Source of the DNA: Eledone cirrhosa
Lineage: Eukaryota
NCBI GenBank assembly: GCA_964016885.1
Contig: OZ024741.1
Coordinates: 307,892,001-307,956,000 of the forward strand
Direction of reading: 5' to 3'
Length of the DNA stretch: 64,000 bases
The translations under genes and the position numbers were made by a program. Within the stretch, counting starts at the first letter, position 1. Every line of letters begins with the position of its first letter. Below, one piece after another: positions 6,001 to 63,957 of the stretch. Below the pieces are notes generated by a model. It made no database searches. It saw only the letters and a list, made by a program, of their open reading frames with translations, and was not told the origin of the DNA.

Positions 6001-7882
6001 TCCTCCTCTTATTCTTATGTTGTCAGGAATTTTCCTAACCCTTATGAATAAGCAGTTCTAATAGACAATAGATAACATAGGATCATTCAGTTGCATCAAC
6101 ATTTTCGCCGCTTCTATAACAAGTGATATTAGCCGATAAATTTCCAATAGGAATGTGCAAAACACTGTAATTTAACATAATTAAAGCAAACCTCCCAATA
6201 GTATGTGTTTTCATAAAGCCTTAGTTTTAAAAGGCTCTATATGCCTGGAATTTTCAGACACCGAGGAAGATGACTTAATAATTCGCTGTCCGAATATATC
6301 GAATATATAATTTTAAAATCATATTGTCAATTTTAAGAACAATTGGCTTGTCATAGAGAAGTGGACGGTTCGAGAAAATACGATCTTTGTCTCTCGGAAA
6401 AGCAGTACACCGTTGGAAATTGTGAACAAAATTGGTGAGTTTTTACGGAGGCTCTTCTATTGTTATTTATTGAGAAATTTCTAATTACTAATTCGCAATA
6501 CAATTCTATTCCCTACGTAATGGATTTGCCAGAAAGATCTTCCTATATTTGAAAACAAAAAAAAACATTAATCTCTACATCAAAATTAAATCATTCACAA
6601 CAAGTGTCACCCTTCTTGTTCACGCATGGTTTTGCACATAGTTTTGAAAAGAATGACAATATTTGCAACTGGATGGATGAAAATACCTCTCTCTGTACAC
6701 AGTAATTAAAAAGTGAGCATGTGACACCTTTTAAATGCTTCTATGCCTATTTCCAAAACCAACCAAATCTCTATATACTGATAGTAGTTTGCTCTGTATG
6801 GGAATATTTTGTTTATATGTTGTCAGGCATCTAAACAATCAGAAACGTGAATCTTAGAGGAAATCTCATACAATATACACTCTATTTTAAATATTTAGTA
6901 CATTTTTCGATCATTTTTATACAGACATGTTTGCCAGTCCATATGCTTATACTTAATATACACACAGAGACAGACACACACACACATATATATATATATA
7001 AATGTAATATGAGTTTTTCGAATATTAATAATAACATTAGATTCGTTTGCAATTTTGCAAACAAGCCTCAATTTTATAGCCATGTCAGTAGAATGAACAC
7101 TTCATTCTTGCTCTTGTGTTAGCATGCGTACAGAACTGCAGACACTAATGTTTCTGGGTATCACCCTTCGTCAGTACAGCTCACTGTTCACCTGCCAAAC
7201 TGTCAGAGCTAGTGAAAATATATGCTATTTTCAAAAATACACAGTGACTGATTGGTCTGATTTGCATATTAGCAGGCTGGCTGATCAGTCAGATCTGCAT
7301 ATTAGCAGATCCACTGATCAGCCATATTTGCATATCAGCAGACTGGCCAGTCTGCTGTTTCCCGCCGAGGTTAACTTTACCTTTCATCCTTACGGGGTCG
7401 ATAAAATAAAGTACCAGTAATGCTCTGGGATAATTGTTGGCCTTGTGCTAAAAGTAGAAACAATCATTAATATTCGAAAAACTCAGATTACATTTATTGT
7501 ATTCAGCCATGTAGAGCGAAATTATCTTATATATATATTTTTTCATTCGCAGCAGATTTATTATCGAAATGAAAAGCACGGCATCTGAGTCTTCTTATAA
7601 ATGAGTCCGATTTTTCTATAAGTTGTTTTAGAAAGTCCTTATTCTTAGGTAAAGGTATATCTTTTAGAGAAGAAGAGATCCTAAAGAATTCCATTTTTAA
7701 TCAGTTATAATTTAAAGCGCTCGACAATAAAGGAGCAAAATATATGCAGAGGTTATATTTAATTTGTTGGGATTCAACAAGCTTAAACATTTTTATAACT
7801 GATATAAAGCACTCAACAAGTTAGTGGAGTAAATACACAATATATTAATAAATGGAAACTATATTTATAAAACCATATTTAT

Positions 7883-10965: not shown

Positions 10966-11080
<115 letters not shown>

Positions 11081-11082
11081 CA

Positions 11083-11500
11083 CAGTAGTATGTATATATA
11101 TACATACATGCACACATTTAAGTATGGATTTACCGAACATTTATTATAATGCTCGGTTTGTTTGTAAACAAACATCCCGAATTAAGCCGTACAGTGTTTA
11201 GCAAACATCATTGCCCTTTTGTTCAACACTGACAAAGGAACGATGTACTAGTTTCAAGCTTATTAGCTACCGTACTAAGAGTGAGAAATGAAATTTCGTT
11301 TCATTTTTTTCGTTTATCGTTTTCGGTACGCCCGGTCGATTAACTCACTCGATATGCAAATTAGGCTGCTCAGCCGTTAATATGCATAAGGAAATTATAT
11401 GCTTTCAGACGTTCAATCACCTGGCAGGAAGGCATACGGTGCTGACGATAGCTAATAAGCTTGAAACTAGTAATGAAATTTCGTTTCATTTTTTCCGTTT
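11083..11500. mobile_element. HHR-bearing non-coding element, family H (rearranged)
   Basis: Homologous to 51674-52140. HHR core CTGACGA at 11442 (+), and the 3' half of an HHR on the minus strand at ~11240-11269. Confidence 0.75.
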
Positions 11501-11505
11501 ATATA

Positions 11506-14500
11506 TTTTTAAAAAAATATTTTCTTATTTTACGTCCTTTATATTATTGTTCTGCATTCTCCTGCATTGAACCACCTAGGTACTATGACATAACCTGTGT
11601 ATTTGCTGGCATGGGCGTGCATCTGTGCGCTTATGTTAGTTGATATATTAAATTATCTATATTTATCTCCAAATCACTGATTTGTCGAGCAAACTTGTCA
11701 AAACCACTTCTAAAAAAATTTTTTTTGGGGTGTTAGTAGGCGTCAGTCATCTTACCATCCCATTCCTTCTAACTAGCCTCTGTGTCACGTGATTGATTCT
11801 TTAGAATCGGCCATTTGACTTGAAGCAGTGAGAATTTCGGTACATAGAATCCAGTCCTCGCAAGCTGTTCGATCTACCGAATTATTATTATTTTTATATG
11901 AGCCGCCAGTGTCCGCGCATTGCCTGGAGACTTAACTGAGAATAGACTTCCTGATGACGCAATGAATTCTCGACAGTTGGATTACGTAACTGTCTTTATC
12001 CCATTGCAGAAACTAATTAGTTGGAGTGAAAATTTAAGTAAGAAAAAAAAATTTTTTTTAAATTTTTTTAAAAAAATATTTTCTTATTTTACGTCCTTTA
12101 TATTATTGTTCTGCATTCTCCTGCATTGAACCACCTAGGTACTATGACATAACCTGTGTATTTGCTGGCATGGGCGTGCATCTGTGCGCTTATGTTAGTT
12201 GATATATTAAATTATCTATATTTATCTCCAAATCACTGATTTGTCGAGCAAACTTGTCAAAACCACTTCTAAAAAAATTTTTTTTGGGGTGTTAGTAGGC
12301 GTCAGTCATCTTACCATCCCATTCCTTCTAACTAGCCTCTGTGTCACGTGATTGATTCTTTAGAATCGGCCATTTGACTTGAAGCAGTGAGAATTTCGGT
12401 ACATAGAATCCAGTCCTCGCAAGCTGTTCGATCTACCGAATTATTATTATTTTTATATGAGCCGCCAGTGTCCGCGCATTGCCTGGAGACTTAACTGAGA
12501 ATAGACTTCCTGATGACGCAATGAATTCTCGACAGTTGGATTACGTAACTGTCTTTATCCCATTGCAGAAACTAATTAGTTGGAGTGAAAATTTAAGTAA
12601 GAAAAAAATTTTTTTTAAATTTTTTTAAAAAAATATTTTCTTATTTTACGTCCTTTATATTATTGTTCTGCATTCTCCTGCATTGAACCACCTAGGTACT
12701 ATGACATAACCTGTGTATTTGCTGGCATGGGCGTGCATCTGTGCGCTTATGTTAGTTGATATATTAAATTATCTATATTTATCTCCAAATCACTGATTTG
12801 TCGAGCAAACTTGTCAAAACCACTTCTAAAAAAATTTTTTTTGGGGTGTTAGTAGGCGTCAGTCATCTTACCATCCCATTCCTTCTAACTAGCCTCTGTG
12901 TCACGTGATTGATTCTTTAGAATCGGCCATTTGACTTGAAGCAGTGAGAATTTCGGTACATAGAATCCAGTCCTCGCAAGCTGTTCGATCTACCGAATTA
13001 TTATTATTTTTATATGAGCCGCCAGTGTCCGCGCATTGCCTGGAGACTTAACTGAGAATAGACTTCCTGATGACGCAATGAATTCTCGACAGTTGGATTA
13101 CGTAACTGTCTTTATCCCATTGCAGAAACTAATTAGTTGGAGTGAAAATTTAAGTAAGAAAAAAAAATTTTTTTTAAATTTTTTTAAAAAAATATTTTCT
13201 TATTTTACGTCCTTTATATTATTGTTCTGCATTCTCCTGCATTGAACCACCTAGGTACTATGACATAACCTGTGTATTTGCTGGCATGGGCGTGCATCTG
13301 TGCGCTTATGTTAGTTGATATATTAAATTATCTATATTTATCTCCAAATCACTGATTTGTCGAGCAAACTTGTCAAAACCACTTCTAAAAAAATTTTTTT
13401 TGGGGTGTTAGTAGGCGTCAGTCATCTTACCATCCCATTCCTTCTAACTAGCCTCTGTGTCACGTGATTGATTCTTTAGAATCGGCCATTTGACTTGAAG
13501 CAGTGAGAATTTCGGTACATAGAATCCAGTCCTCGCAAGCTGTTCGATCTACCGAATTATTATTATTTTTATATGAGCCGCCAGTGTCCGCGCATTGCCT
13601 GGAGACTTAACTGAGAATAGACTTCCTGATGACGCAATGAATTCTCGACAGTTGGATTACGTAACTGTCTTTATCCCATTGCAGAAACTAATTAGTTGGA
13701 GTGAAAATTTAAGTAAGAAAAAAATTTTTTTTAAATTTTTTTAAAAAAATATTTTCTTATTTTACGTCCTTTATATTATTGTTCTGCATTCTCCTGCATT
13801 GAACCACCTAGGTACTATGACATAACCTGTGTATTTGCTGGCATGGGCGTGCATCTGTGCGCTTATGTTAGTTGATATATTAAATTATCTATATTTATCT
13901 CCAAATCACTGATTTGTCGAGCAAACTTGTCAAAACCACTTCTAAAAAAATTTTTTTTGGGGTGTTAGTAGGCGTCAGTCATCTTACCATCCCATTCCTT
14001 CTAACTAGCCTCTGTGTCACGTGATTGATTCTTTAGAATCGGCCATTTGACTTGAAGCAGTGAGAATTTCGGTACATAGAATCCAGTCCTCGCAAGCTGT
14101 TCGATCTACCGAATTATTATTATTTTTATATGAGCCGCCAGTGTCCGCGCATTGCCTGGAGACTTAACTGAGAATAGACTTCCTGATGACGCAATGAATT
14201 CTCGACAGTTGGATTACGTAACTGTCTTTATCCCATTGCAGAAACTAATTAGTTGGAGTGAAAATTTAAGTAAGAAAAAAAAATTTTTTTTAAATTTTTT
14301 TAAAAAAATATTTTCTTATTTTACGTCCTTTATATTATTGTTCTGCATTCTCCTGCATTGAACCACCTAGGTACTATGACATAACCTGTGTATTTGCTGG
14401 CATGGGCGTGCATCTGTGCGCTTATGTTAGTTGATATATTAAATTATCTATATTTATCTCCAAATCACTGATTTGTCGAGCAAACTTGTCAAAACCACTT

Positions 14501-17500
14501 CTAAAAAAATTTTTTTTGGGGTGTTAGTAGGCGTCAGTCATCTTACCATCCCATTCCTTCTAACTAGCCTCTGTGTCACGTGATTGATTCTTTAGAATCG
14601 GCCATTTGACTTGAAGCAGTGAGAATTTCGGTACATAGAATCCAGTCCTCGCAAGCTGTTCGATCTACCGAATTATTATTATTTTTATATGAGCCGCCAG
14701 TGTCCGCGCATTGCCTGGAGACTTAACTGAGAATAGACTTCCTGATGACGCAATGAATTCTCGACAGTTGGATTACGTAACTGTCTTTATCCCATTGCAG
14801 AAACTAATTAGTTGGAGTGAAAATTTAAGTAAGAAAAAAATTTTTTTTAAATTTTTTTAAAAAAATATTTTCTTATTTTACGTCCTTTATATTATTGTTC
14901 TGCATTCTCCTGCATTGAACCACCTAGGTACTATGACATAACCTGTGTATTTGCTGGCATGGGCGTGCATCTGTGCGCTTATGTTAGTTGATATATTAAA
15001 TTATCTATATTTATCTCCAAATCACTGATTTGTCGAGCAAACTTGTCAAAACCACTTCTAAAAAAATTTTTTTTGGGGTGTTAGTAGGCGTCAGTCATCT
15101 TACCATCCCATTCCTTCTAACTAGCCTCTGTGTCACGTGATTGATTCTTTAGAATCGGCCATTTGACTTGAAGCAGTGAGAATTTCGGTACATAGAATCC
15201 AGTCCTCGCAAGCTGTTCGATCTACCGAATTATTATTATTTTTATATGAGCCGCCAGTGTCCGCGCATTGCCTGGAGACTTAACTGAGAATAGACTTCCT
15301 GATGACGCAATGAATTCTCGACAGTTGGATTACGTAACTGTCTTTATCCCATTGCAGAAACTAATTAGTTGGAGTGAAAATTTAAGTAAGAAAAAAATTT
15401 TTTTTAAATTTTTTTAAAAAAATATTTTCTTATTTTACGTCCTTTATATTATTGTTCTGCATTCTCCTGCATTGAACCACCTAGGTACTATGACATAACC
15501 TGTGTATTTGCTGGCATGGGCGTGCATCTGTGCGCTTATGTTAGTTGATATATTAAATTATCTATATTTATCTCCAAATCACTGATTTGTCGAGCAAACT
15601 TGTCAAAACCACTTCTAAAAAAATTTTTTTTGGGGTGTTAGTAGGCGTCAGTCATCTTACCATCCCATTCCTTCTAACTAGCCTCTGTGTCACGTGATTG
15701 ATTCTTTAGAATCGGCCATTTGACTTGAAGCAGTGAGAATTTCGGTACATAGAATCCAGTCCTCGCAAGCTGTTCGATCTACCGAATTATTATTATTTTT
15801 ATATGAGCCGCCAGTGTCCGCGCATTGCCTGGAGACTTAACTGAGAATAGACTTCCTGATGACGCAATGAATTCTCGACAGTTGGATTACGTAACTGTCT
15901 TTATCCCATTGCAGAAACTAATTAGTTGGAGTGAAAATTTAAGTAAGAAAAAAATTTTTTTTAAATTTTTTTAAAAAAATATTTTCTTATTTTACGTCCT
16001 TTATATTATTGTTCTGCATTCTCCTGCATTGAACCACCTAGGTACTATGACATAACCTGTGTATTTGCTGGCATGGGCGTGCATCTGTGCGCTTATGTTA
16101 GTTGATATATTAAATTATCTATATTTATCTCCAAATCACTGATTTGTCGAGCAAACTTGTCAAAACCACTTCTAAAAAAATTTTTTTTGGGGTGTTAGTA
16201 GGCGTCAGTCATCTTACCATCCCATTCCTTCTAACTAGCCTCTGTGTCACGTGATTGATTCTTTAGAATCGGCCATTTGACTTGAAGCAGTGAGAATTTC
16301 GGTACATAGAATCCAGTCCTCGCAAGCTGTTCGATCTACCGAATTATTATTATTTTTATATGAGCCGCCAGTGTCCGCGCATTGCCTGGAGACTTAACTG
16401 AGAATAGACTTCCTGATGACGCAATGAATTCTCGACAGTTGGATTACGTAACTGTCTTTATCCCATTGCAGAAACTAATTAGTTGGAGTGAAAATTTAAG
16501 TAAGAAAAAAATTTTTTTTAAATTTTTTTAAAAAAATATTTTCTTATTTTACGTCCTTTATATTATTGTTCTGCATTCTCCTGCATTGAACCACCTAGGT
16601 ACTATGACATAACCTGTGTATTTGCTGGCATGGGCGTGCATCTGTGCGCTTATGTTAGTTGATATATTAAATTATCTATATTTATCTCCAAATCACTGAT
16701 TTGTCGAGCAAACTTGTCAAAACCACTTCTAAAAAAATTTTTTTTGGGGTGTTAGTAGGCGTCAGTCATCTTACCATCCCATTCCTTCTAACTAGCCTCT
16801 GTGTCACGTGATTGATTCTTTAGAATCGGCCATTTGACTTGAAGCAGTGAGAATTTCGGTACATAGAATCCAGTCCTCGCAAGCTGTTCGATCTACCGAA
16901 TTATTATTATTTTTATATGAGCCGCCAGTGTCCGCGCATTGCCTGGAGACTTAACTGAGAATAGACTTCCTGATGACGCAATGAATTCTCGACAGTTGGA
17001 TTACGTAACTGTCTTTATCCCATTGCAGAAACTAATTAGTTGGAGTGAAAATTTAAGTAAGAAAAAAATTTTTTTTAAATTTTTTTAAAAAAATATTTTC
17101 TTATTTTACGTCCTTTATATTATTGTTCTGCATTCTCCTGCATTGAACCACCTAGGTACTATGACATAACCTGTGTATTTGCTGGCATGGGCGTGCATCT
17201 GTGCGCTTATGTTAGTTGATATATTAAATTATCTATATTTATCTCCAAATCACTGATTTGTCGAGCAAACTTGTCAAAACCACTTCTAAAAAAATTTCTT
17301 TTGGGGTGTTAGTAGGCGTCAGTCATCTTACCATCCCATTCCTTCTAACTAGCCTCTGTGTCACGTGATTGATTCTTTAGAATCGGCCATTTGACTTGAA
17401 GCAGTGAGAATTTCGGTACATAGAATCCAGTCCTCGCAAGCTGTTCGATCTACCGAATTATTATTATTTTTATATGAGCCGCCAGTGTCCGCGCATTGCC

Positions 17501-17669
17501 TGGAGACTTAACTGAGAATAGACTTCCTGATGACGCAATGAATTCTCGACAGTTGGATTACGTAACTGTCTTTATCCCATTGCAGAAACTAATTAGTTGG
17601 AGTGAAAATTTAAGTAAGAAAAAAATTTTTTTTAAATTTTTTTAAAAAAATATTTTCTTATTTTACGTC

Positions 17670-17677
<8 letters not shown>
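11506..17677 (+). repeat. Tandem array of 11 x 557/559-bp hammerhead-containing units (retrozyme-like)
   Basis: CTGATGA cores at 11951, 12510, 13067, 13626, 14183, 14742, 15299, 15856, 16413, 16970 and 17527. Units appear identical except an A9/A7 tract and one T>C at 17298. Flanked by short TA on the left and (TA)n on the right. Confidence 0.97.
11930..12039 (+). ncRNA. Type I hammerhead ribozyme, first of 11 copies
   Basis: Stem I ACTTC(11946-50)/GGAGT(12023-27) with distal ACTTAA(11930-35)/TTAAGT(12034-39). Core CTGATGA. Stem II GCAATG/CATTGC plus GACAGTT/AACTGTC. GAAA at 12009. Palindromic stem III AACTAATTAGTT. GUU triplet, predicted cut after 12022. Confidence 0.88.
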
Positions 17678-17709
<32 letters not shown>

Positions 17710-19058
17710 CGAAGATAGACATAGAATATTCGAAAATATTCTGTATGTTTATAATAAACATTTTGAAGACCTAATCGCTATAGAATAGAATACGTCACGT
17801 ATTACAATTAGATTCTCGATAAAAGCAAGGGAAGTAACCTACGCGTTTCATTCTTATTAGAAATCTTCAGGATTACATATCCAGTGCTTTTATCGAGAAT
17901 GACACAGCTAGAGACTTATAGAATACTTAGCTGTGTACAGGAACTGGTTTGAAAGAGCGGTTGCCGGTCCGGCAGAAATTAGAAATTGGAATAAATGCTC
18001 TGAAATAGCGATATATATGTGAAGATAGACATAGAATATTCGAAAATATTCTGTATGTTTATAATAAACATTTTGAAGACCTAATCGCTATAGAATAGAA
18101 TACGTCACGTATTACAATTAGATTCTCGATAAAAGCAAGGGAAGTAACCTACGCGTTTCATTCTTATTAGAAATCTTCAGGATTACATATCCAGTGCTTT
18201 TATCGAGAATGACACAGCTATAAAAGCACTGGATATGTAATCCTGAAGATTTCTAATAAGAATGAAACGCGTAGGTTACTTCCCTTGCTTTTATCGAGAA
18301 TCTAATTGTAATACGTGACGTATTCTATTCTATAGCGATTAGGTCTTCAAAATGTTTATTATAAACATACAGAATATTTTCGAATATTCTATGTCTATCT
18401 TCACATATATATCGCTATTTCAGAGCATTTATTCCAATTTCTAATTTCTGCCGGACCGGCAACCGCTCTTTCAAACCAGTTCCTGTACACAGCTAAGTAT
18501 TCTATAAGTCTCTAGCTGTGTCATTCTCGATAAAAGCACTGGATATGTAATCCTGAAGATTTCCAATAAGAATGAAACGCGTAGGTTACTTCCCTTGCTT
18601 TTATCGAGAATCTAATTGTAATACGTGACGTATTCTATTCTATAGCGATTAGGTCTTCAAAATGTTTATTATAAACATACAGAATATTTTCGAATATTCT
18701 ATGTCTATCTTCACATATATATCGCTATTTCAGGGCATTTATTCCAATTTCTAATTTCTGCCGGACCGGCAACCGCTCTTTCAAACCAGTTCCTGTACAC
18801 AGCTAAGTATTCTATAAGTCTCTAGCTGTGTCATTCTCGATAAAAGCACTGGATATATAATCCTGAAGATTTCTAATAAGAATGAAACGCGTAGGTTACT
18901 TCCCTTGCTTTTATCGAGAATCTAATTGTAATACGTGACGTATTCTATTCTATAGCGATTAGGTCTTCAAAATGTTTATTATAAACATACAGAATATTTT
19001 CGAATATTCTATGTCTATCTTCACATATATATCGCTATTTCAGAGCATTTATTCCAAT
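17710..19058. repeat. 310-bp hammerhead tandem repeat in both orientations (retrozyme-like family D)
   Basis: Minus-strand cores (tcttcag) at 17864 and 18174. Inversion point ~18219/18220. Plus-strand CTGAAGA at 18243, 18553 and 18863 (period 310). (TA)n on both sides. Confidence 0.95.
18237..18279 (+). ncRNA. Type I hammerhead ribozyme (family D representative)
   Basis: GTAATC-CTGAAGA-t-TTCT-aata-AGAA-t-GAAA-CGCG-TA-GGTTAC. In full units stem I is extended by ttctcgataaaagca/tgcttttatcgagaa. GUA triplet. Confidence 0.9.
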
Positions 19059-51315: not shown

Positions 51316-52165
<850 letters not shown>

Positions 52166-58250: not shown

Positions 58251-58395
58251 AATATAGTAATAATAATAAAATTGAAGACTAAAATCCAAAGAGGGCTCGA
58301 TAAGGAAAATATATATCCAATATATCAGAACCGAAGACAGAACCACGTTTATGGTATAAAAGAGGTCGTAGACTAATGTTCTCTAAGTGGTGCAT

Positions 58396-59556
58396 GAGGT
58401 TACTGATCTTATTGGCCTTTTCCTTCTTTTCTCTATCAAGGACGAATTCCCCAACGCGGGCGGTGGTTTGTACCGTGACGATGGTCTTTTGACCATGACT
58501 AAGTGCGGACCTCGTGCTTGCGACAGATTCAGAAAAGAACTCACAGCCTTCTTTAAAGGCTTCAACCTCTCTATACAGGTTGAGGCCAATCTCTCGGTCG
58601 TTAATTACCTCGACGTTACCCTCAATTTATTGAATTACCCGTATAGAAAGCCGAATGATACGCTTAATTACATAAGTAAGCATTCCAACCATCCTGCCAG
58701 CATAACCAAGAACCTGGTAAAAAACGTTTCGTTGAGGCTTTCCCGTCTTTCCACCAACGAGCGCATTTTCAACGACCATTCCACTTATTACAATGAAGCT
58801 CTTGCTCGAAGTGGATTTGTCGATAAGGTAGCATATACAGAGTACGAGAATAGACCTAGAAGAAATAGATCCCGTCGCATTTGTTGGTTTAACCCACCAT
58901 ATAATATGGAGGTGGCCACACCATTAGCTAAGATCTTTCTTTCCCTTATTACGAAGCATTTTCCCCCTACATATAAATATAGTAAAATTTTTAATAGAAA
59001 CACTATTAAAATGTCTTACTCTACGACTCCTAACCTTGCACATAACATCACAGCTTCAAATTTAGCTAAACTATCTAGCCGTAGGAACACGTGCAACCCT
59101 GTAGTTAGTACTAACTGTAATTGTAGGAATCGGTCTGATTGTCCCCTATCCGGGAAATGCCTCTCTAGTAACATTGTCTACAAATGTAAGGTTGTAACAC
59201 CCACGTCCCGTAGGGCCTACATAGGGTTAACCGCCAATAGATTCAAGCAGCGTCTTTACATGCATACCCATTCTTTTCGTTACCCTCTAAGAAGGAATAT
59301 GACGTCACTTTCAGCTTATATCTGGAGTCTAAAAGACAACCACACCCAATATAAGTTACACTTGGAGATCCTAGCTAGGGCTAGATCGTATAACGGAAAT
59401 AAAAGACTATGTGACCTCTGCGCCGCTGAGGCCCTGGAAATACTCTACGCCACAGACCACATCTTAAACAAAAAATCTGAGGCAGTTTCGGCTTGTAAAC
59501 ATAAATTGCAAAAAACTTTCCTGTATTACAGCCCCACGTTATACCCTAACGGATAG
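58396..59556 (+). CDS. PLE RT C-terminal half plus GIY-YIG endonuclease (open frame, 5'-truncated)
   Basis: GGLYRDDGL (RT catalytic DD), NYLDVTLNL, YRKPND, WFNPPY, linker CNCRNRSDC (CxCx5C), NIVYKC...AYIGLT (GIY-YIG), CDLC..E, LNKKSE...CKH. No stop over ~386 codons. Confidence 0.9.
   Translation, partial: EVTDLIGLFLLFSIKDEFPNAGGGLYRDDGLLTMTKCGPRACDRFRKELTAFFKGFNLSIQVEANLSVVNYLDVTLNLLNYPYRKPNDTLNYISKHSNHPASITKNLVKNVSLRLSRLSTNERIFNDHSTYYNEALARSGFVDKVAYTEYENRPRRNRSRRICWFNPPYNMEVATPLAKIFLSLITKHFPPTYKYSKIFNRNTIKMSYSTTPNLAHNITASNLAKLSSRRNTCNPVVSTNCNCRNRSDCPLSGKCLSSNIVYKCKVVTPTSRRAYIGLTANRFKQRLYMHTHSFRYPLRRNMTSLSAYIWSLKDNHTQYKLHLEILARARSYNGNKRLCDLCAAEALEILYATDHILNKKSEAVSACKHKLQKTFLYYSPTLYPNG

Positions 59557-61717: not shown

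Positions 61718-63957
<2,240 letters not shown>

Follow-up and report, generated by a model that had tools for sequence, protein, structure and literature searches.

Animal non-LTR (long terminal repeat) retrozymes are, in the accessible text of Cervera and de la Pena (2020, PMC7229834), represented by tested invertebrate circles of 170-400 nt, and the accessible part of Li et al. (2026, bioRxiv 10.64898/2026.07.22.740005) gives family consensus lengths of 51-972 bp; as far as that text of the two reports goes, a proposed movement of retrozymes by the enzymes of Penelope-like elements (PLEs), with an RNA circle as the template, is argued from co-occurrence, homology to the PLE pseudo-LTR (pLTR) and analogy. 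PLEs themselves are marked by a one-sided tail, an inverted 5'-truncated copy and two internal starts of reverse transcription (PMC11167929, PMC3846280). In the present study we analysed a window of 64,000 nucleotides from Eledone cirrhosa (assembly GCA_964016885.1, contig OZ024741.1, positions 307,892,001 to 307,956,000), which holds a tandem array whose units each carry a type I hammerhead ribozyme motif. This array is one copy of a young, dispersed, genome-wide family, and the novelty of the family lies in its insertion anatomy, namely two fixed 3' end sites, A and B, and the strict pairing of one A with one B. Fixed two-site 3' ends and inverted A+B insertions were not found for retrozymes in the accessible text of Cervera and de la Pena (2020) and Li et al. 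(2026), and a literature search, in which subscription journals and the supplements of PMC7229834 and of the 2026 preprint were poorly covered, returned no account of this 557-bp family or of tail-type retrozyme ends.

The array and its landmarks are as follows, phases within the unit being counted from the predicted ribozyme cut (phase 1 is position 12582).

11498..17677, + strand: single-arm insertion of the 557-bp retrozyme family, 11 units, 5' truncated at phase ~33, 3' end at site A
17673..17707, no strand: (TA)n target tract at the 3' junction, seen in the sequence
after 12022, + strand: predicted cut after the GUU triplet, copy 1 (motif scan)
after 12581, 13138, 13697, 14254 and 14813, + strand: predicted cuts, copies 2-6 (motif scan)
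after 15370, 15927, 16484, 17041 and 17598, + strand: predicted cuts, copies 7-11 (motif scan)
12656..12660, + strand: site A, first fixed 3' end, phase ~75-79, used at the right end of the array (17673-17677)
12776..12782, + strand: site B, second fixed 3' end, phase ~195-201, not an end in this window
12662..12788, + strand: 'tail' domain between A and B, with a short hairpin at phases 84-107 and a long one at 132-183

As assembled, the array comprises 11 complete units, eight of 557 bp and three of 559 bp (units 1, 3 and 5, each with two additional A), and unit 11 differs by one substitution; with its left boundary at ~11498-11506 and its right at 17677 it is, at 6180 bp, the longest among 97 A arms measured. 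The preliminary description of this locus, made from the letters alone, had counted 11 near-identical units with no credible open reading frame (ORF), and both observations hold: there are 11 hammerhead cores, and the longest ATG ORF on the unit concatemer is 35 aa, an ORF for reverse transcriptase (RT) and GIY-YIG endonuclease being absent from the unit. Its supposed ~40-bp terminal redundancy is actually the offset between a variable 5' truncation (phase ~33) and the fixed 3' site (~75-79), and its TA tract is present at the right end (17673-17707) and reduced at the left to a TA remnant of only ~6-8 bp beside another hammerhead element. We also considered, and rejected, an endless ORF around the circle (maximal stop-free stretch 55 codons), a tRNA origin (ARAGORN, 0 genes) and a B-box-like word at ~11868, which is not retained in sister families. 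The family consists of pure tandems with no LTR-type organisation, primer-binding site and polypurine tract having had no separate search. Because the alternation of 559- and 557-bp units spans just 6 of the 11, local duplication after insertion may account for part of the length of the array. A CACGTG-containing block at phases ~316-335 (window ~12897-12916) is retained in most subfamily representatives and is possibly a promoter element or a hairpin. Among public sequencing runs no RNA run was listed for the sequence; six runs of unspecified kind, from 4 organisms and 4 studies, contain 0.33-0.81 of the sampled words, figures to which we attach no weight either way.

A search of the 3.0-Gb assembly with the 557-bp unit gave 418 candidate loci and 250 matches, with 150 matches listed at 95-100% identity, and a gapped hammerhead core pattern occurred 7,961 times genome-wide as against 0 for its reversed control. 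A sister family, F2, has a unit of 525 bp, ~76% identical to that of the window, at 1,789 candidate loci, and 11 cluster representatives of 501-557 bp are 75-92% identical to the unit. The likeness to animal non-LTR retrozymes is extensive: a non-coding tandem of low GC (36%) with one type I hammerhead per unit, thousands of motifs, a predicted self-paired circle and co-occurrence with PLEs that retain intact ORFs of 777 aa. Non-coding, dispersed and found alongside PLEs, the family is thus an animal non-LTR retrozyme by the sequence tests applied, except for the first stem II pair (10.1/11.1) and the Rfam models treated below; judged on sequence, it is a protein-free, hammerhead-bearing tandem retroelement of the non-LTR retrozyme type, present at more than 1,000 (TA)n sites. 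Its units of 500-580 bp exceed the tested circles and fall within the published consensus range, so that the window unit, at 557 bp, is not exceptionally large as first thought, and size alone is no novelty since published lengths reach 972 bp. That the locus is instead an ordinary local satellite, or an assembly artefact, with a chance ribozyme look-alike has a negligible probability in our view: the near-identity of the units and the silence of Rfam would suit such an origin, and as a description of the family it is refuted by the dispersal, the fixed ends, the subfamilies at 75-92% identity and the compensatory changes in the fold. A single locus with no dispersed copies, which the preliminary description had named, together with missing cleavage and transcripts, as the outcome that would reduce the array to such a satellite, is contradicted by more than 1,100 dispersed end junctions. 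Entire insertions have also been duplicated locally, at L222 and at L317/L319, with spacings of 2.0 kb and 6.7 kb.

The ends of the insertions carry the main finding. When 40 of the 418 candidate loci were scored, all 38 insertions of this first set (the window and 37 of the 40) ended in (TA)n at phase ~79 (A) or ~201 (B), the BLAST-derived phases including a few target TA bases, and their 5' ends were scattered. The two sites lie ~122 bp apart, and A shares TATAT microhomology with the target; site A is presumably a start of reverse transcription. Exact junctions of the two sites with (TA) number 302 for A and 820 for B genome-wide, with 0 in controls; the surplus of B, judged from 20 B loci, comes for the most part from short truncations and from older copies whose A site is variant, and the idea that 75 unpaired B ends on C1 belong to an autonomous partner was rejected, as 20/20 examined belong to the 557-bp family itself. 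The rule that two arms placed head to head use one A and one B was obeyed in 19/19 inverted insertions of a set chosen solely by similarity, in 25/25 divergent pairs (20 examined) in the first 350 Mb of C1, which has 39 A and 100 B ends, in 9/9 inverted insertions chosen by their B end, and in 27 distinct insertions among 40 C2 loci chosen by their A end. Overall, among the examined loci, 74/74 distinct and cleanly classifiable head-to-head insertions have one A and one B, and no A/A or B/B inverted insertion was encountered in the loci examined; the figure omits L191, L205 and L207 (interrupted A and B arms), L199 (degenerate A), L228 (second arm ending outside TA, near phase 63) and L235 (under the identity cut-off).

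The inner junctions of these insertions overlap by at least 2 nt in 23/36 rows as against 17% in simulation (rows with overlaps taken from BLAST, L222 counted twice, junctions in AT-rich zones or under 97% identity excluded). In 8 of the 36, both arms stop within ~10 nt of the same phase (for example 272/272, 354/354, 109/109), which is what one would expect if only the first arm were target-primed and its cDNA then folded back to prime the inverted arm itself, the origin put forward for Penelope palindromes, for which palindromic junctions have been reported (Arkhipova et al. 2013, PMC3846280). We nevertheless judge this origin improbable. The longer arm is A in 28 and B in 46 of the 74 insertions, a second arm that always ends at the other site is left unexplained, and in L041 the shorter B arm extends past the outer end of the A arm, with a shared variant in outer-end register. 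The 5' arm ends themselves cluster directly 3' of the hammerhead (55/198 in phases 1-50) and also near phases 401-525, perhaps through RT stalling at structure or through AT microhomology.

Outside the hammerhead core, conservation across subfamilies is highest between A and B, with 60-65% invariant columns in phases 81-160 as against 18-50% in other 40-nt bins of the subfamily comparison, and the long hairpin there shows three two-sided changes. This domain is a candidate binding site for a PLE protein. The resemblance to endonuclease-bearing PLEs (Frangieh et al. 2024; Craig et al. 2021; Arkhipova et al. 2013) is indeed close: two internal end points downstream of a hammerhead, a tail on one end only, an inverted 5'-truncated arm, microhomology at the junctions and a bias for (TA)n. 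Site A lies ~75 nt after the predicted cut, as compared with ~85-92 nt (+111-118 minus +26) for the first start of the PLE PAc after its own cut (Frangieh et al. 2024, PMC11167929). The 557-bp family (F1) differs from PLEs in having no ORF, a full-size hammerhead in place of the minimal PLE motif, no match to the pLTR of the one family examined, and a tail of ~122 bp (~118-123 bp in F2), thrice the usual 30-40 bp of PLE tails.

The same pairing rule is followed beyond this family. Among 30 F2 loci examined (one ambiguous), 12/12 of those bearing hammerheads on both arms pair the two ends one-of-each, and so do 10/10 fully visible cases of a neighbouring 310-bp family (17 loci examined). It is also followed by an abundant young PLE in the same genome, with the following position.

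L163:928-3258 and L258-L271: intact 777-aa frames of an abundant young PLE (ORF scan)

The two ends of this PLE lie ~40 bp apart and are paired in 6/6 classifiable inverted copies (14 examined). Its ORF matches RVT_1 (E=4e-7), with GIY-YIG-like and linker Cys motifs recognised by eye; its 3' region holds long TA/TG microsatellites, and a motif scan found no standard hammerhead in its pLTR. Since F2, the 310-bp family and the 777-aa PLE all obey the rule, mobilisation of the 557-bp family by PLEs is well supported, and we hold it to be very probable on these sequence grounds. We initially entertained A+B pairing as proof of a circular template as well, and dropped this because a linear autonomous PLE obeys the same rule.

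The second component of the family is its ribozyme. A motif scan recognised the type I hammerhead (core CUGANGA / GAAA / UH, three stems) in 11/11 units, and its parts in copy 1 are listed here.

11930..12039, + strand: extended type I hammerhead with a two-part (distal and proximal) stem I (motif scan)
11951-11957, + strand: CUGAUGA core
11958/12008, + strand: C-A mismatch at the first stem II pair (10.1/11.1)
11959-11964/12002-12007, + strand: stem II, with a distal hairpin at 11972-11994
12009-12012, + strand: GAAA
12011-12022, + strand: 12-nt palindrome containing stem III
11938-11943 (stem I internal loop) with 11966-11971 (stem II internal loop), + strand: predicted loop-loop pseudoknot (covariation)

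Among 453 motifs, 95 of them distinct, from the window and loci L001-L147, the proximal stem II is paired in 92-95/95 at six positions, one of which takes all four Watson-Crick types (C-G 42, G-C 36, U-A 12, A-U 4) and a second two types, and the proximal stem I is paired in 82-93/95 at five positions, with C-G/U-A and A-U/C-G swaps. As the motifs are related and fall into about six subfamilies, this covariation represents few events and not 95; it points to selection on the fold. The internal loops of stems I and II can pair over 5-8 bp in most motifs, as GAGAA/UUCUC in most subfamilies and, by a two-sided change, GAAAA/UUUUC in F2, with a shorter or different best match in ~20 of the 95. Such loop-loop pseudoknots accelerate hammerheads, according to the accessible part of Perreault et al. 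(2011, PMC3088659); in contrast to the pseudoknotted hammerheads of that report, the contact predicted here is between two internal loops, the animal motif concerned is highly repeated, and the mismatch is C-A. The Watson-Crick pseudoknot, the two-part stem II and the C-A first pair likewise set the motif apart from those of animal non-LTR retrozymes.

The preliminary description was right about the core, the two-part stems I and II and the GUU triplet, and missed both the loop-loop pseudoknot and the C-A at 10.1/11.1; the C-A leaves stem II without a closing pair in 95/95 distinct motifs; this count is partly a matter of selection, the loci found genome-wide by core pattern having been picked with those two letters and the other loci not. 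We regard the C-A pair as unusual and, by analogy, not disqualifying, because PLE hammerheads have an additional base at the 10.1/11.1 junction (accessible text of Cervera 2014) and a U-U mismatch at the first stem II pair is known (the part of Perreault et al. 2011 cited above). The Infernal/Rfam hammerhead models, which had been proposed as a check, were run and left the motif undetected: Rfam gave 0 matches in the window at the gathering threshold and no hammerhead among 18 matches to E=10 over 11000-12700. Stem III is a single C-G pair within the 12-nt palindrome, an arrangement that works as a dimer in other animals (Cervera 2014, same text). The monomer folded as a circle reaches -133.5 kcal/mol (z -4.1 vs 40 shuffles, partly via A/U runs), and the 86-nt hammerhead core alone has a z of -1.75.

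Patterns of variants, unlike the pairing rule, can separate a circular from a linear template, and were therefore used for this question. With homopolymer zones masked, 47 young insertions that have three or more copies over 300 sites showed 37 variant sites fixed in all units, 51 singletons and 6 intermediate sites. Seven fixed sites (6 loci) were private to one locus among 98 young insertions, on both arms, and unit-specific variants were in register between arms in only 2 of 31 testable cases. One private variant, that of L212, was checked genome-wide: it is present in all 7 copies of L212 and in 4 copies at a single C4 locus that has been duplicated locally and carries a different haplotype. 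Multiplication of one monomer in the course of insertion would leave such a pattern. L045 shows three cycles of alternation between two unit types, and its second arm keeps the same register; the X type occurs nowhere else and the Y marker also at two further loci, a pattern that fits a dimer circle. The joints between units were precise in 408/409. Private fixed variants, star-like divergence of the units and precise joints together favour rolling-circle copying of a monomer circle.

A cut linear monomer on which the RT jumps from end to end would pass through a monomer bottleneck too, and 3/198 arms do begin within 2 nt of the cut. About one such arm is expected by chance, however, so that three are no clear excess, and end-to-end RT jumps usually leave indels, at odds with the 408 exact joints; we consider this template highly improbable. 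A further alternative is an uncut linear transcript of several units on which a PLE enzyme primes at both sites with no need for a circle, the hammerhead being slow or dispensable and the arrays lengthening later by unequal exchange. The A+B rule fits this equally well, and several observations count in its favour or, more generally, against a cut and circularised template. Uncut RNA was the main template of PAc in vitro (Frangieh et al. 2024, PMC11167929), and local, satellite-type amplification is favoured in the accessible text of Li et al. (2026). The unit-specific variant of L041 that is in register on both arms is compatible with a linear multimer and also with a trimer circle. Neighbouring units have variants in common in L033, L059 and L317, a sign of local duplication after insertion, and as such duplication is real, L045 could instead be a short linear template expanded later. 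Homogeneous source arrays may be absent from this assembly. The C-A mismatch and the one-pair stem III may slow cleavage, the proximal stem I has a probability of 0.0 in the predicted circular fold (a pseudoknot-free model), and 8/9 predicted Xenopus retrozymes were uncleaved in vitro (Li et al. 2026, same text). Five inverted insertions are not cleanly classifiable, among them L228, whose second arm ends near phase 63 in non-TA DNA. Finally, no autonomous partner was linked by sequence in one PLE family and one motif search: the abundant PLE family examined (30 loci, 14 at 10 kb) shares just AT-rich matches of 16-29 bp with the 557-bp unit, and a search for a small hammerhead plus site A gave 91 matches (control 6), judged from the listing to be mostly deleted retrozymes and chimeras, and no partner PLE, 20 loci not having been scanned for ORFs.

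Against the uncut transcript, singletons of the source should reach both arms in register, which was seen in only those 2 of 31 cases; copying several units does not on its own bring a new variant to fixation in all of them, as at the seven private sites; gradual expansion predicts nested variants, whereas 6 intermediate sites stand beside 51 singletons; the youngest arrays are already long; and a dispensable ribozyme would sit poorly with selection on its fold. We thus regard the uncut linear transcript as rather unlikely, and the whole chain, including a circular 557-nt RNA template copied by a Penelope-type enzyme, as likely. The genomic signs accordingly bear out much of what had been proposed for this locus at the outset: a dispersed retrozyme-type family (genome-wide loci, end junctions and core motifs), a TA-targeting insertion of PLE type ((TA)n junctions and PLE-like two-end pairing) and rolling-circle copying (private fixed variants and precise joints). 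The expectation of phase-permuted copies in (TA)n proved correct for the varying 5' ends and not for the 3' ends, which are fixed at two sites.

On this basis the following course of events may be envisaged. Arrays would be transcribed, and the pseudoknotted hammerhead, predicted from a fold that covariation supports, would cut after GUU once per unit, possibly as a dimer through the palindromic stem III. By analogy with Cervera and de la Pena (2020), the monomer would then be ligated into a circle. The hairpin tail domain would be bound by a PLE protein, probably dimeric, which would nick both (TA)n strands, one nick priming at site A and the other at B, 122 nt downstream, via TATAT microhomology; here the pair of fixed ends and the strict one-of-each rule are observed, and the priming is presumed. 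Each polymerase would then travel around the putatively circular template, the observed arm lengths reaching up to ~11 units. According to the junctions, the two cDNA ends would join head-to-head by 1-5 nt of microhomology, or one arm would be lost, as apparently happened in the window, and units would occasionally be duplicated locally after insertion. For the specific form of twin-primed rolling-circle reverse transcription, in which two subunits of one Penelope enzyme prime at two fixed positions of one small RNA circle (sometimes a dimer) and lay down head-to-head concatemers in (TA)n, we have a slight preference.

Other elements of the same kinds surround the array.

11037..11502, no strand: inverted insertion of a separate PLE-type element with a minimal hammerhead; the array went into its TA tail
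17710..19058, no strand: inverted insertion of the 310-bp tandem repeat with a minimal hammerhead, tail ~33 bp; a separate family
51674-52164, core at 51911: second inverted insertion of the same minimal-hammerhead element (motif scan)
7141-7174, - strand: small type I hammerhead-like motif (motif scan)
58387-59556, + strand: probable PLE coding fragment, 46-50% identical to fragment P0002
40079-41233, - strand: probable PLE coding fragment, RT-like YVDD motif recognised by eye
62815-63336, + strand: probable PLE coding fragment, Pfam GIY-YIG match (E=2.7e-5)

The TA cluster at 11-19 kb thus brings together three hammerhead families. As the origin of the array, nested insertion in the TA tail of the left-hand element is a simpler account than a template switch from that element, which we considered too; the minimal-hammerhead element also adjoins L046 and L265 and is fused to the 557-bp family in L252 and L255. 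The 310-bp family is young, with 243 candidate loci, two ends ~33 bp apart and U-U at the first stem II pair.

The family offers countable genomic marks both for the enzyme, in its one-A-one-B ends, and for the template, in the variants fixed per insertion, and it names parts that can be tested: a 557-nt RNA, a (TA)n target, two predicted starts and, between these, the conserved hairpin domain. Since Rfam does not recognise this pseudoknotted hammerhead with its C-A closure, the number of similar families may be underestimated. Genome writing is a further field for which processive rolling-circle target-primed reverse transcription of a small circle would be interesting. If the proposed mechanism is true, these insertions would provide direct evidence from the genome that transposition uses retrozyme circles as its template and is driven by PLEs, and twin priming would account for the tandem and inverted structure of PLEs generally.

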